Translations under genes and position numbers: made by a program
The notes under the pieces: model-generated
Database searches by the model: none
What the model saw: the letters and a program-made list of their open reading frames with translations, nothing else
Told to the model about the DNA's origin: nothing
DNA from: an uncultured Chloroflexia bacterium
Lineage (GTDB): Bacteria; Chloroflexota; Limnocylindria; QHBO01
Direction: 5' to 3'
DNA length: 64,000 nucleotides
Assembly (NCBI GenBank): GCA_963773695.1
Contig: CAVZCE010000015.1
Location: 46,744 to 110,743, forward strand
Part shown: positions 54,397 to 56,567 of the stretch, piece after piece
Layout of the letters: every line of letters begins with the position of its first letter
How positions within the stretch are numbered: position 1 is the first letter of the stretch

Positions 54397-54470
54397 ACCT
54401 TGAGGTAGTAGGGTCGGACCGGGGCGCGGTGGCGGCCTTGCGGCCGCTCCGTCTCCCCGGCCCGCCCTCC

Positions 54471-54504
54471 GAACCGGACGTGCGCGTTGCCACGCATCCG
54501 GCTC
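54471..54504 (-). ncRNA. Group II intron domain V (catalytic hairpin)
   Basis: Minus strand GAGCCGGAUGCGUG-GCAA-CGCGC(AC)GUCCGGUUC. It has the AGC triad, a 10 plus 4 bp helix with the conserved 2 nt AC bulge and a GNRA loop, 18 nt after the RT/maturase ORF stop; a second GCAA-capped hairpin (putative domain VI) follows. Confidence 0.8.
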
Positions 54505-54521
54505 TCCACGACCTCATGCCG

Positions 54522-55965
54522 TCAGGCGTGTCGCTGATCCCTGGCGTGCTCAGCCCACGGCGAGGGGATGTGTGCGCCCCGATAGCGGTAGCGGCTGACC
54601 GTCACCGCGCTCGGGTCGAACAGCGTCACCTCGTCCTCCGTCGGCCACCACCCCGGAAGGTAGCGCCGTCGCAGCTGCTTCCAGTTGGCGCGGAGATGCT
54701 TGTGGCGGAGCCAGGCGACCACCCGCCGCCAGACGAAGGCGCGCAGATAGCTGAAGGTCCGCTTCGACACCCCGTGCCGGAAGTAGGCGGTCCAGCCTCG
54801 CAGCACCGGGTTGAGCCGGTGCAGGAGGATGCTGAGCGACAGGTCCGTCGCCCCTCGGGTCAGCGCTCGCACCTTGGCCTTGACCGTCGCGAGGGCGGTC
54901 TTGGTCGGGTAGGTGTAGACGAAACGCTGACCCGTGCCTCGCTTGAGCTGCCGCACGATGCGGAAGCCCAGGAAGTCGAAGCCCTCGTCGATGTGGCGCG
55001 ATCCTCGTCTTCTCGTCCGACAGGCGCAGGCCCATCGGCGCGAGCACCGCTGCCACCTCGTCGCGCAACGCCTCGGCATGGGCGCGGGTGCCGGCCACGA
55101 GCACGACGAAGTCGTCCGCATAGCGGACGAGCCGGTAGGTGGCCAGCCCCCGGCGCCGCCGCTGCTGGCGTGCGCCCGAGTGCGCCCCCATCGCCGCCCA
55201 GGCTGCGACGAAGTGCTCGTCGAGGACCGAGAGGGCGATGTTGGCGAGCAGCGGTGAGAGGATGCCGCCCTGCGGGGTGCCGGTGGCCGTGTCCCGCTCG
55301 ACGCCATCCTCACCGAGGATGCCGGCTCGCAGGAAGGCCTTGACCAGCGCCAGGACGCGCCTGTCTCCGATCCGAGCTCGCACCCGGTCCATGAGGGCCG
55401 GGTGGTCGATCTCATCGAAGCAGGCCGAGATGTCCGCATCGACCACCCACTCATAGGAGCGGCTGGTGAAGAGGTGGATCTCGGCGATCGCGTCCTGCGC
55501 CCGTCGCCCGGGCCGGAAGCCATACGAGCACGGCGCGAAGTCCGCCTCGAAGATCGGCTCGAGCACGAGCTTGAGCGCAGCCTGCACCACCCGGTCCCGG
55601 ACGGTCGGGATGCCCAGCCGGCGACGCTTGCCGCCGGGCTTGGGGATCATCCGCTCGCGAACCGGGATCGGGCGGAACGTGCGGGCACGAAGATCGGCCC
55701 GCAGCTCGGCGAGGAACGCTGCCTCGCCGCGCTCGGCTTCGATCGCATAGGCCGTCTGGCCGTCGATCCCTGCCGAGCGTGCGCCCCGGTTGCTCCGCAC
55801 CCGGCGCCATGCAACGAGCAGGAACGCCGGGTCAGCAACGAGGTTGAAGAGGTCGGCGAACCGACGCGTCGGATCGTCGATCGCCCATCGGTGCAGCTTG
55901 GTCTGCATCCGCAGTACCCGCCCCTCCGCCTCACGCGGCGTCGGCCACGGCGCGCCGGTGTTCAC
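54522..55965 (-). pseudogene. Group II intron-encoded protein (reverse transcriptase plus maturase X), interrupted by a 1 nt frameshift near 55000
   Basis: RT motifs (…RPIPVRERMIPKPGGKRRRLGIPTVRDRVVQ…, …YADDFVVL…) in frame 54550-55965; maturase X (IDEGFDFLGFRI…RGWTAYFRH…) in frame 54522-55523. The junction …SDEKTRIA/HIDEGF needs a -1 shift. Confidence 0.75.
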
Positions 55966-56567
55966 CGGCGACCTCCTGCCCCGCAGTCACCAATTCTGCG
56001 AGATCGCTGTCCTCCTTCGCCCTGTGGCCGGCTTTCCCGGCCTCCGACTACTCCGAGGACTCCGCCCCAGCCCGAAGCCATCAGCTGACGACGCGCCTGC
56101 CCGCTGCCAGGCGGCAGGGAGGGCGGCTTCGAGTTGGTTCCCACGTTCACCTCACGACCGATCGACGGGGGTGGTGCCCAGCTTTTCCCCTGCAGCCTCC
56201 GCCACGGATACGCCGCAGGCCTTCTCCGTGGCCCCTGCTCGGACGGGTATCGCGCCCGAGCGGAGCCGGCCGCCGGCAACTTCGACGACCGCCCTGCTGC
56301 TGCCCGGCCCAAATCCGCCAGGTTTGGAGCCGGTGTTCCTCGCTTGAGGGGGTTCCACCACTGGTTCAGATCGTCTTGCACCTTCCCGTCTCGCTTGCCG
56401 GACCCGGACCGTCTGGCGGTGCCGACCCGTTCCGTCGTTGTCGGGGCTGCTCCCACCCGATCCCTGCGTCTCCAGGGTCAGGCTGCCCCCAGCTTCACCG
56501 ACCTGCTGCGACAGGCCGGCGGTGGGCTCCTTCCGCCCGCTCGGTCATGTGGCGCCTCGTGGCGCAC

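Follow-up and report, generated by a model that had tools for sequence, protein, structure and literature searches.

The stretch of DNA analysed here, 64,000 nucleotides of contig CAVZCE010000015.1 from an uncultured Chloroflexia bacterium (positions 46,744 to 110,743 of the forward strand; hereafter the window), carries on its minus strand a group II intron inserted into the transposase gene of an IS256-family insertion sequence (IS). We consider it very probable that this nested element, a probable g1 intron inside an IS256-family IS, is inactivated: a 'parasite within a parasite' and not a working switch. Its parts are listed below in window coordinates; the protein encoded by the intron, a reverse transcriptase (RT) and maturase, is referred to as the intron-encoded protein (IEP).

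53632..57180, minus strand: whole IS256-family IS including the intron, 3549 bp (1389 bp without the intron).
57181..57188, minus strand: left copy of the target-site duplication, AGGAGCCC, an 8-mer abutting the IS end.
53624..53631, minus strand: right copy of the target-site duplication, AGGAGCCC, the identical 8-mer abutting the other IS end.
56568..57071, minus strand: transposase exon 1, 168 codons from a GTG start, MADASMTLL...FPYLWLDAT, its N-terminus aligned to that of the uninterrupted transposases P0121-P0123.
54408..56567, minus strand: group II intron, probable g1 variety with IIB-like RNA.
54522..55965, minus strand: RT/maturase (IEP) in intron domain IV, GTG start, frame broken by a +1 G at ~54997.
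53684..54407, minus strand: transposase exon 2, from YLKVRE... to ...LLIAS and a stop codon, with a +1 C at 54285.

The intron spans 56567..54408, that is 2160 nt. Its 5' boundary reads ...CTCGATGCCACC/GTGCGCC (a slash marks the exon-intron or exon-exon junction throughout), exon 1 ending in ...TTCCCCTACCTGTGGCTCGATGCCACC and intron base 1 lying at 56567. Its 3' boundary reads ...CCGACCCTAC/TACCTCAAGGTG, where 54408 is the final intron base and exon 2 begins at 54407. The group II end consensus (5' GUGYG, 3' AY) is satisfied by GUGCG at 56567-56563 and by ...CCCUAC ending at 54408. Homology with introns lying in unrelated flanks (loci L004-L007 and L097) extends from 56567 to within 3 nt of 54408, and the aligned junction sequences of relatives fix the 3' boundary at 54408. 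An earlier, sequence-only reading of this DNA had given the intron as 54397-56567; the end at 56567 was right, and the other lay 11 nt off, inside exon 2. Its statement that both exon-intron boundaries can be read was borne out, the same points being fixed by related introns and by L100, an intron-less copy of the IS. The G+C content of the intron (70.6%) is close to that of the window (71.6%). An Rfam search of the 64-kb window gave a single group II match (RF00029, 54506..54408) and no second copy of the intron, and no second copy of the IS was found in the 64 kb either.

The spliced exon junction has the sequence GATGCCACC/TACCTCAAG. Once joined, the exons read ...AFPYLWLDAT/YLKVREAGRV in phase 0, with the intron in the sense orientation. 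L100 reads GACGCCACCTACCTCAAGGTG across the junction, with nothing added or missing, and careful alignment to this copy keeps the transposase frame from one exon into the other. Uninterrupted transposases of 408 aa (P0121-P0123), 97% identical to the spliced protein after repair of its frameshift, have ...AFPYLWLDATYLKVREAGRVV... (LDATYLKVRE) over the same point, so that the peptide FPYLWLDAT-YLKVRE, which the sequence-only reading had predicted to be restored by exon joining, is the one found in relatives. The spliced transposase is matched in one stretch spanning the junction both by NF033543 (331.6 bits for a cut-off of 150) and by PF00872 (E = 2.9e-125), as expected of the in-frame insertion into an IS256-family transposase that had been proposed.

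The ends of the IS, at 57180 and 53632, were set by the limits of homology with L100 (2891-4279, 96.1% nucleotide identity). The termini are imperfect inverted repeats, GGTTGGTCCCCAGACTTGGTGTAACAG and GGTCAAGTCCCAGGACGTGGTGTAACAG, and 8 bp is the usual length of the target duplication for IS256. The inverted repeats and the 8-bp duplication show that the IS arrived here by transposition. Intron-less copies of this IS exist, at 96% nucleotide identity (L100) and 97% amino-acid identity (P0121-P0123), L100 being the DNA that encodes one of these proteins. An uninterrupted transposase at L014 was also considered as an 'empty site' and was rejected as too distant a family member; L100 was used in its place.

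A single intact transposase open reading frame (ORF) is not present, since the gene is both split by the intron and frameshifted. The transposase frameshift had been placed near 54290; comparison with L100 locates it to a single extra C at 54285 (GAGGG[C]ATCGG in the window, GAGGG-ATCGG in L100). In blastx of the spliced exons, the match stays in frame 1 up to a point 86-135 nt past the junction and continues in frame 2, and deletion of the extra C restores ...GNDEGSAWPRFVRSLVERGL... in the transposase. An extra G at 54280/54281, deduced from the 76%-identical L003, was overruled by the 96%-identical L100. The intactness of transposases was assessed by blastx frame tracking throughout, ORF length being unusable at 71% G+C, where wrong frames stay open over more than 240 codons.

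The IEP starts at a GTG codon six bases after an AGGAGG motif. Repaired at its frameshift, it is a protein of 480 aa with RT and maturase (X) domains and without a DNA-binding/endonuclease (D/En) domain. It is matched by the profiles PF00078 (E = 2e-37), PF08388 (E = 3.5e-21) and TIGR04416 (381.8 bits for a cut-off of 300), and its nearest relatives of solved structure are the GsI-IIC RT (8e-59) and a maturase/RT of the T.el4h type (3e-57). As the sequence-only reading had noticed, the frame is broken once near 55000: one extra G lies at ~54997-54999 (ATCGC[G]CCACATC) and five relatives lack it. Neither this G nor the extra C at 54285 falls within a long homopolymer. Thousands of intact homologues of 479-484 aa exist, up to 93% identical, and pairwise ratios of nonsynonymous to synonymous divergence (dN/dS) of 0.20-0.38 indicate that purifying selection acts, or acted until recently, on the IEP lineage.

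Outside domain IV, the intron RNA was resolved into the following domains.

56141..56562, minus strand: domain I, from an RNAalifold consensus on 52 relatives with pair counts.
56064..56140, minus strand: domain II, from the same consensus and pair counts.
56009..56060, minus strand: domain III, with many compensatory changes in helices 32-34.
54471..54504, minus strand: domain V, 34 nt, with AGC triad, AC bulge and GCAA tetraloop.
54410..54468, minus strand: domain VI, with a bulged A at 54414.

Domain V is indeed the textbook hairpin that had been described: the AGC triad (nt 2-4), the AC bulge (nt 24-25) and a GCAA loop of the GNRA type can be read from the sequence, and RF00029 scores 47.7 bits (gathering score 40; E = 2.9e-6 for the whole window). 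In domain VI, the minimum-free-energy fold leaves an A bulged at 54414; its distance from the 3' splice site, 7 nt, is one expected of a branch point (7-8 nt). Domains V and VI together fold with -73 kcal/mol (z = -5.6). A permissive Rfam search (E up to 10) of 54300-56700 recovered domain V/VI only and no match to a group-II-D1D4 family. For domains I-III, we aligned the 5' 600 nt of the window intron with 51 relatives and folded the alignment, which gave 144 consensus pairs, 104 of them with compensatory double changes. A second consensus, obtained with ViennaRNA, contained 177 pairs and was compared with controls in which the pairing partners were slid by 1-3 columns, and with 500 shuffles. 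Standard pairs fill 93.7% of the cells, against 33-46% in the slid controls; both sides change in 125 of the 177 pairs, against about 66; and the covariation score is 0.447, against at most 0.10. No shuffle out of 500 matched the observed pairing and covariation values. Domains I-III thus fold with strong covariation over the 52 relatives; the sequence-only reading would have been refuted had domains I-IV failed to fold, which did not happen, and the anatomy of the intron is not explicable as a chance match.

The elements by which the intron recognizes its exons, the exon-binding sites (EBS) facing the intron-binding sites (IBS) of the exons, were located computationally, from covariation between intron columns and flanking exons across the family.

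56334..56340, minus strand: EBS2 region, about GGAACAC; columns 255-261 covary with exon positions -10..-16.
56245..56251, minus strand: EBS1, GAUACCC, in a hairpin loop; columns 375-381 covary with exon positions -1..-7.
56184, minus strand: EBS3, A; column 447 pairs with +1 in 46/52 relatives.

In many family members, EBS1 is complementary to the final 6-9 nt of exon 1, for example CCAACCG facing CGGTTGG in L004, with nine pairs in L019 and eight in L080; introns at IS3-type sites have GAUGUCG facing (C)GACATC. Pairing of EBS1 with IBS1 was scored as the best of four registers, and introns matched to the exons of other members served as a control. At least five of seven pairs form in 39 of the 52 members. 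In the window, EBS1 GAUACCC forms only 3/7 pairs with its own 5' exon UGCCACC, which is below the mean of the non-cognate control (3.8). EBS2 forms 5/7 pairs with exon positions -10..-16, a value inside the control range, and the A of EBS3 pairs with T, the first base of exon 2. A perfect site for this EBS1 would read GGGTATC. L098 and L022 share the EBS1 sequence GAUACCC and form 5/7 pairs with it, their DGI-type sites reading GGCATC and GGGATC. The introns examined at sites encoding DAT (window, L002, L003, L014, L095, L096) have variable EBS1 loops, none of which is fully complementary to its own exon. Folded alone, the EBS1 hairpin is predicted to form a long stem capped by a loop of 4 nt. 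The motif GGUGG at intron nt ~208-212, which complements CCACC, was tried as EBS1 and discarded: it is invariant where exons differ, and covariation puts EBS1 elsewhere. The misfit of EBS1 suggests that the intron sits at a non-cognate, paralogous site; it bears on the activity of this copy and not on its identity as a group II intron. Insertion at a non-cognate paralogous site, gene conversion between copies of the intron and homogenisation during assembly are all possible causes.

To place the window copy within its lineage, we examined the contexts of eleven close relatives of the IEP (77-93% identity) at 18 places. These relatives were found by protein search, and the sample is accordingly biased toward intact IEPs; the labels borne by the nearest relatives are Chloroflexota, Limnocylindria and Actinomycetota. 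In 16 of these 18 contexts, IS256-family exons flank the intron on both sides, with the orientation of the intron and with the junction at the homologous codon. At the other two, L001 ends at a contig end and L097 has exon 2 only. The contexts of L004-L007 were assigned by blastx. The junction peptides are the following.

Window: YLWLDAT / YLKV
L002: YVFLDAT / YVKA
L003: YLWLDAT / YVKV
L096: YLWLDAT / YVKV
L014: YVFADAT / YLKG
L098: YIWSDGI / YLGV
L022: YAWADGI / YVKA
L008: YLWVDGI / HFNI
L009 and L013: YLFVDGS / HFRM
L010-L012: YVWADGV / HVRV
L004: VLMLDGW / NMGE

The D of these peptides is one that we take to be the first Asp of the IS256 DDE triad. The intron is thus found two codons past the first catalytic Asp, a point common to many IS256 genes that are otherwise strongly diverged, many of them alignable as protein only. 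In a wider clade of 80 loci (IEP identity 55-78%), mostly from actinomycete genomes, the targets are other transposases: genes of the IS3 family, again at the first catalytic Asp (PN.LW..DI/TY), ISL3-like (DPFHV..) and IS110-like (GVDWAEEH/) genes, a second IS256 site (FWMQVL/SELK), and others. Comparison of the window with L002 or L003 gives a nucleotide identity of 85-89% for the intron and of 72-77% for the IS exons; for L003, synonymous divergence (dS) is 0.47 in the IEP and 0.97 in the transposase. Because the intron is less diverged than the IS exons, these values suggest that it moved between IS lineages, or was homogenised, instead of co-diverging with one IS.

The transposase frame is broken in 6 of 14 intron-bearing IS256 copies (window, L002, L096, L011, L014 and L098), by an in-frame stop in L014 and by truncation in L098. 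Since 6/14 related copies have broken frames, the data are consistent with the intron usually being a disabling insertion, followed by decay of the IS.

Several loci of this collection show further rearrangements. Assembly ERZ25039533 (L008-L013) contains six introns of 2167 nt, identical at every base, in at least four different IS256 genes at the homologous codon. Their flanks differ from base -1 onwards: the last exon bases are ATC, AGC, GTG or TCG, and the last four all differ. EBS1 of these copies, AAUACCC, is a poor fit to all of the sites, and the A of EBS3 is unpaired against a C at +1. L015 corresponds to the L013 locus as it appears in a metagenome-assembled genome labelled Actinomycetes (MFD04944.bin.1.326). 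At L097 (2150-4613), the 5' flank is unrelated to IS256 and matches the intron's own EBS1 at 7/8 positions, and the 3' flank is an IS256 exon 2 (YLKVREGGRV); this locus looks like a recombination product of two intron copies. L034 (~3340-7540) is twintron-like, one intron interrupting another of its kind after about nt 21: the 5' flank is GGTGCGCCACGAGGCGCTG/GTGCGCC, and downstream come further matches to the 5' and 3' ends. At L081 (3425-7021), an IS3-type site, the intron measures 3597 nt, about 1.4 kb more than its relatives, which suggests that it may hold a further insertion. The branch at IS3-type sites inserts after ...CTGTGGGTNGCCGACATC (L-W-V-A-D-I), as seen in the 5' exons of L036, L039, L042, L043, L046, L047, L049-L051, L054, L056, L063 and L075; this DNA resembles the IS256 DGI site, ...CTGTGGGTCGACGGCATC. 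Judging from these sequences, a few changes in EBS1 (GAUGUC to GAUACC) could shift an intron between the IS3 and IS256 families. A search of a plasmid database returned no arrangement identical to that of the window. The top match was a Streptomyces plasmid with the reverse nesting (L099, Streptomyces sp. NBC_01216 plasmid NZ_CP108679, 1501-6183), where a gene annotated as an IS256-family transposase lies between the 5' RNA of a related intron and its ltrA gene; this intron adjoins an IS701-family transposase gene.

For the window copy, we infer the order of events, the retrohoming step and the loss of splicing as follows. The IS256-family IS reached its present spot by transposition, and one copy of this IS would have been invaded by a mobile, endonuclease-less g1 intron. 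The intron RNA would have reverse-spliced into the DNA and then been copied by its own reverse transcriptase; in endonuclease-less introns, RmInt1 among them, the replication fork is the likely source of the primer. The insertion splits the transposase gene, which accurate RNA splicing alone could restore. The present copy is expected to splice poorly or not at all, because EBS1/IBS1 pairing specifies where the 5' cut is made and keeps exon 1 in place until it is ligated, and because in vivo splicing depends on the maturase, which is here frameshifted. Even a spliced mRNA would give no full transposase, as it carries the +1 C at 54285 in exon 2. The sequence-only reading had held that splicing is required to express the transposase. 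Logically only a spliced mRNA could encode the whole protein, and to that extent the statement stands; in the window copy, the spliced mRNA would itself be frameshifted. The further proposal of that reading, that intron splicing gates transposition, finds no support in the window copy, where both ORFs are frameshifted, EBS1 pairs at 3/7 positions and the window holds no second intron.

Several observations weigh against an inactivated element. Both single-base insertions could be assembly errors, and several of the related loci come from long-read metagenome assemblies. EBS1 was placed by family covariation and alignment position. EBS2, with 5/7 pairs, and the paired EBS3 are compatible with some binding of the exons. 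In the window copy, 90% of the consensus pairs of domains I-III still form, at the low end of the family range (88-98%). The maturase could act in trans from a copy outside the 64-kb window. Lastly, the split transposase frame is still intact in 8 of the 14 intron-bearing IS256 copies, and splicing-dependent expression of the transposase may occur in some of the genomes that carry such frames.

The order of events and the misfit of EBS1 admit two further accounts, each of which we hold to be possible and neither of which we favour. The first, the better placed of the two, is that IS and intron moved here together as one 3.5-kb unit, perhaps with a transposase supplied in trans, the alternative being homing of the intron into a resident IS. 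The complete IS ends and the intact target duplication make the element a substrate for a transposase acting in trans, which intron-less copies, 97% identical and present in related samples, could supply; the misfit of EBS1 also makes fresh retrohoming at this site less likely. However, no second copy of the composite with different flanks was found, and the divergence of the exons relative to the intron (exons 72-77% identical with dS 0.97, intron 85-89% with IEP dS 0.47) points to movement of the intron between IS lineages.

The second account, to which we give slightly less weight again, is that gene conversion or recombination among intron copies of one genome replaced an EBS1 that once matched by the EBS1 of a more abundant copy, in which case no insertion at a non-cognate site is needed. 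It would explain the six copies of ERZ25039533, 100% identical over 2167 nt between flanks that differ from base -1, and the mixed flanks of L097 (5' flank matching EBS1 at 7/8, 3' flank IS256) are those expected from recombination; likewise, L003 and L004 share 91% identity in the 5'-terminal 600 nt of the intron but differ in their EBS1 loops. Against it, no conversion tract is directly in evidence, an earlier cognate insertion has to be assumed at each site, and repeat polishing during assembly could homogenise copies as well.

The recurrence of the insertion point raises a question of lineage, for which we put forward a tentative and rather unlikely answer. A g1 sub-lineage may have become a specialist for the coding DNA around the first catalytic Asp in DDE transposases, entering strongly diverged members at the identical codon despite a mismatched EBS1 and, at times, EBS3, as in the six identical introns of four IS256 genes in one genome. 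Its sites would be Y-x-x-x-D-x-x / Y, H or N in IS256 and, for a related branch, W-x-x-D-I / T-Y in IS3. If this were true, targeting would not be dominated by EBS1/IBS1 pairing (protein contacts or DNA structure would then matter), or else gene conversion would be pervasive. Relaxed targeting of this kind would bear on how endonuclease-less introns choose their sites and on the design of retargetable introns for high-GC bacteria.

A functional composite, in which sequencing errors account for the frameshifts and the extent of splicing, by the intron's own maturase or one acting in trans, sets transposase production and IS mobility, appears improbable to us. Several features would fit it: the insertion is sense-strand and phase 0, the joined exons give back the exact protein, most of the ribozyme fold is preserved, exon 2 begins with a base that pairs with EBS3, the IEP lineage bears the mark of purifying selection, the split transposase is intact in 8/14 related copies, and one assembly holds six identical intron-bearing IS copies. 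Yet two independent frameshifts outside long homopolymers would have to be errors, pairing of EBS1 with IBS1 is at chance level, 6/14 related hosts are broken, and in RmInt1, the sole system measured, in vivo splicing of 0.07% amounts to a block and not to a gate (PMC3035460). That there is no intron at all, a chance hairpin resembling domain V standing beside a stand-alone RT gene between transposase fragments, has virtually no probability left: the modest Rfam score (47.7 bits) is all that favours it, and it is refuted by the covariation of domains I-III and by the alignment to the intron-less L100, as well as by precise boundaries whose removal reconstitutes a known IS, by the covariation of EBS1, EBS2 and EBS3 with the flanking exons across the family, and by the existence of a published g1 relative.

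The element matters for annotation. What would be annotated as two 'transposase fragments' and a 'reverse transcriptase' is one nested element, and simple rules (GUGCG...domain V...AY together with an LDAT/YLKVRE junction) should resolve many split IS256 genes in high-GC genomes. It adds one further case of group II introns within other mobile elements, probably disabling them. Any gain from follow-up would lie at the level of the lineage, in the recurrent position at the catalytic-Asp codon combined with frequent EBS1 mismatch.

Other features were noted in the window. A 47-nt direct repeat, 98% identical, occurs at 44203-44249 and 59034-59080; its second copy comprises 7 nt upstream and the first 40 nt of a tRNA-Pro(GGG) gene (59041-59117, plus strand), which is adjoined by a tyrosine-integrase ORF (57978-58934, minus strand). 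Together, these features resemble the attachment (att) sites of an integrated island of ~14.8 kb that would hold the IS256 element with its intron. Long RHS/YD-repeat genes occupy ~45700-52900, with 63-nt periodic repeats and internal duplications (47679-48196 with 48306-48822, 99-100% identical; 50245-50544 with 51677-51976, 90% identical), which suggest duplicated or orphan C-terminal cassettes. A c-di-GMP-II-GCG riboswitch aptamer is matched at 43120-43203, plus strand (RF03170, 56.0 bits for a gathering score of 47.9).

With respect to known introns, the RNA has IIB-like features: a separate EBS3 pairing with +1, the presence of EBS2 and a domain V of 34 nt. The architecture appears IIB-like because EBS1, EBS2 and EBS3 covary with the exons and domain V is of full length. 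The intron is filed as g1 by its similarity to a listed member, the intron of Mycobacterium parascrofulaceum ATCC BAA-614 (our locus L050). This intron is listed as g1 by Toro and Martinez-Abarca (2013; PMC3552965, Table S2), with boundaries 3276-5435, a length of 2160 nt and an IEP of 482 aa. We called the same boundaries independently. Over 478 aa, a stretch that takes in the C-terminal extension, the two IEPs have 62% identity, and they are of nearly the same size (480 aa in the window, 482 aa in L050), as are the introns (2160 nt each); the window intron RNA aligns along the length of the M. parascrofulaceum intron. Other g1 members are the introns of Brevibacterium linens and Intrasporangium calvum, Rh.js.I1, Ca.ac.I1, and Sr.me.I2 in ISRm25 (PMC3552965). 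The group is characterized by RT-X IEPs of ~477-497 aa with a C-terminal extension and by introns of 2160-2207 nt with six domains (PMC3552965), a description that the window intron resembles. It differs in that the M. parascrofulaceum intron occupies an IS3-type site (PN.LW..DI/TY) whereas the window intron lies in IS256, and in that metagenome bins, Chloroflexota-labelled and others, and not cultured Actinobacteria, are the source of its nearest relatives.

The closest parallel in arrangement is RmInt1 of Sinorhizobium meliloti, also an endonuclease-less RT/maturase intron lying in the sense orientation within an IS transposase ORF. Its natural targets are intron-less IS copies, and the window IS likewise has intron-less copies. 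In ISRm2011-2, splicing of RmInt1 in vivo was measured at 0.07%, and the intron has been suggested to hold its host IS in check by restricting its dissemination (PMC3035460, PMC4238363), so that the idea of gating is already published for that pair. RmInt1 belongs to class D (IIB3) and uses another host IS, whereas the window intron is filed as g1 and lies in an IS256-family element. Moreover, RmInt1 has an EBS that matches its site and an intact IEP and is highly mobile; the window copy has a mismatched EBS1 and frameshifts in both ORFs. More generally, bacterial group II introns 'hiding in mobile elements' have been described in varied transposase genes (Waldern et al. 2020, PMC7306698), where they act as retroelements and not as introns on which the expression of a host gene depends, a pattern that the window intron fits. 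A limited literature search on group II introns turned up no paper on an IS256-specific lineage, nor on one that recurrently targets the first-catalytic-Asp region of IS256-family genes.

By analogy only, the insertion point recalls other mobile elements. Inteins, group I introns and homing endonucleases target conserved catalytic motifs, and the likeness consists in insertion into the invariant DNA of a catalytic motif that is conserved across diverged hosts. They move by an entirely different mechanism, and the window intron has a selfish element, instead of an essential gene, as its host. Nesting itself has precedents in E. coli as well, where Dai and Zimmerly (2002) reportedly described introns in IS629 and IS911. 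What sets the window intron apart from the known cases of nesting is its probable g1 variety, its IS256 host, the insertion point at the catalytic Asp and the decayed state of the element.

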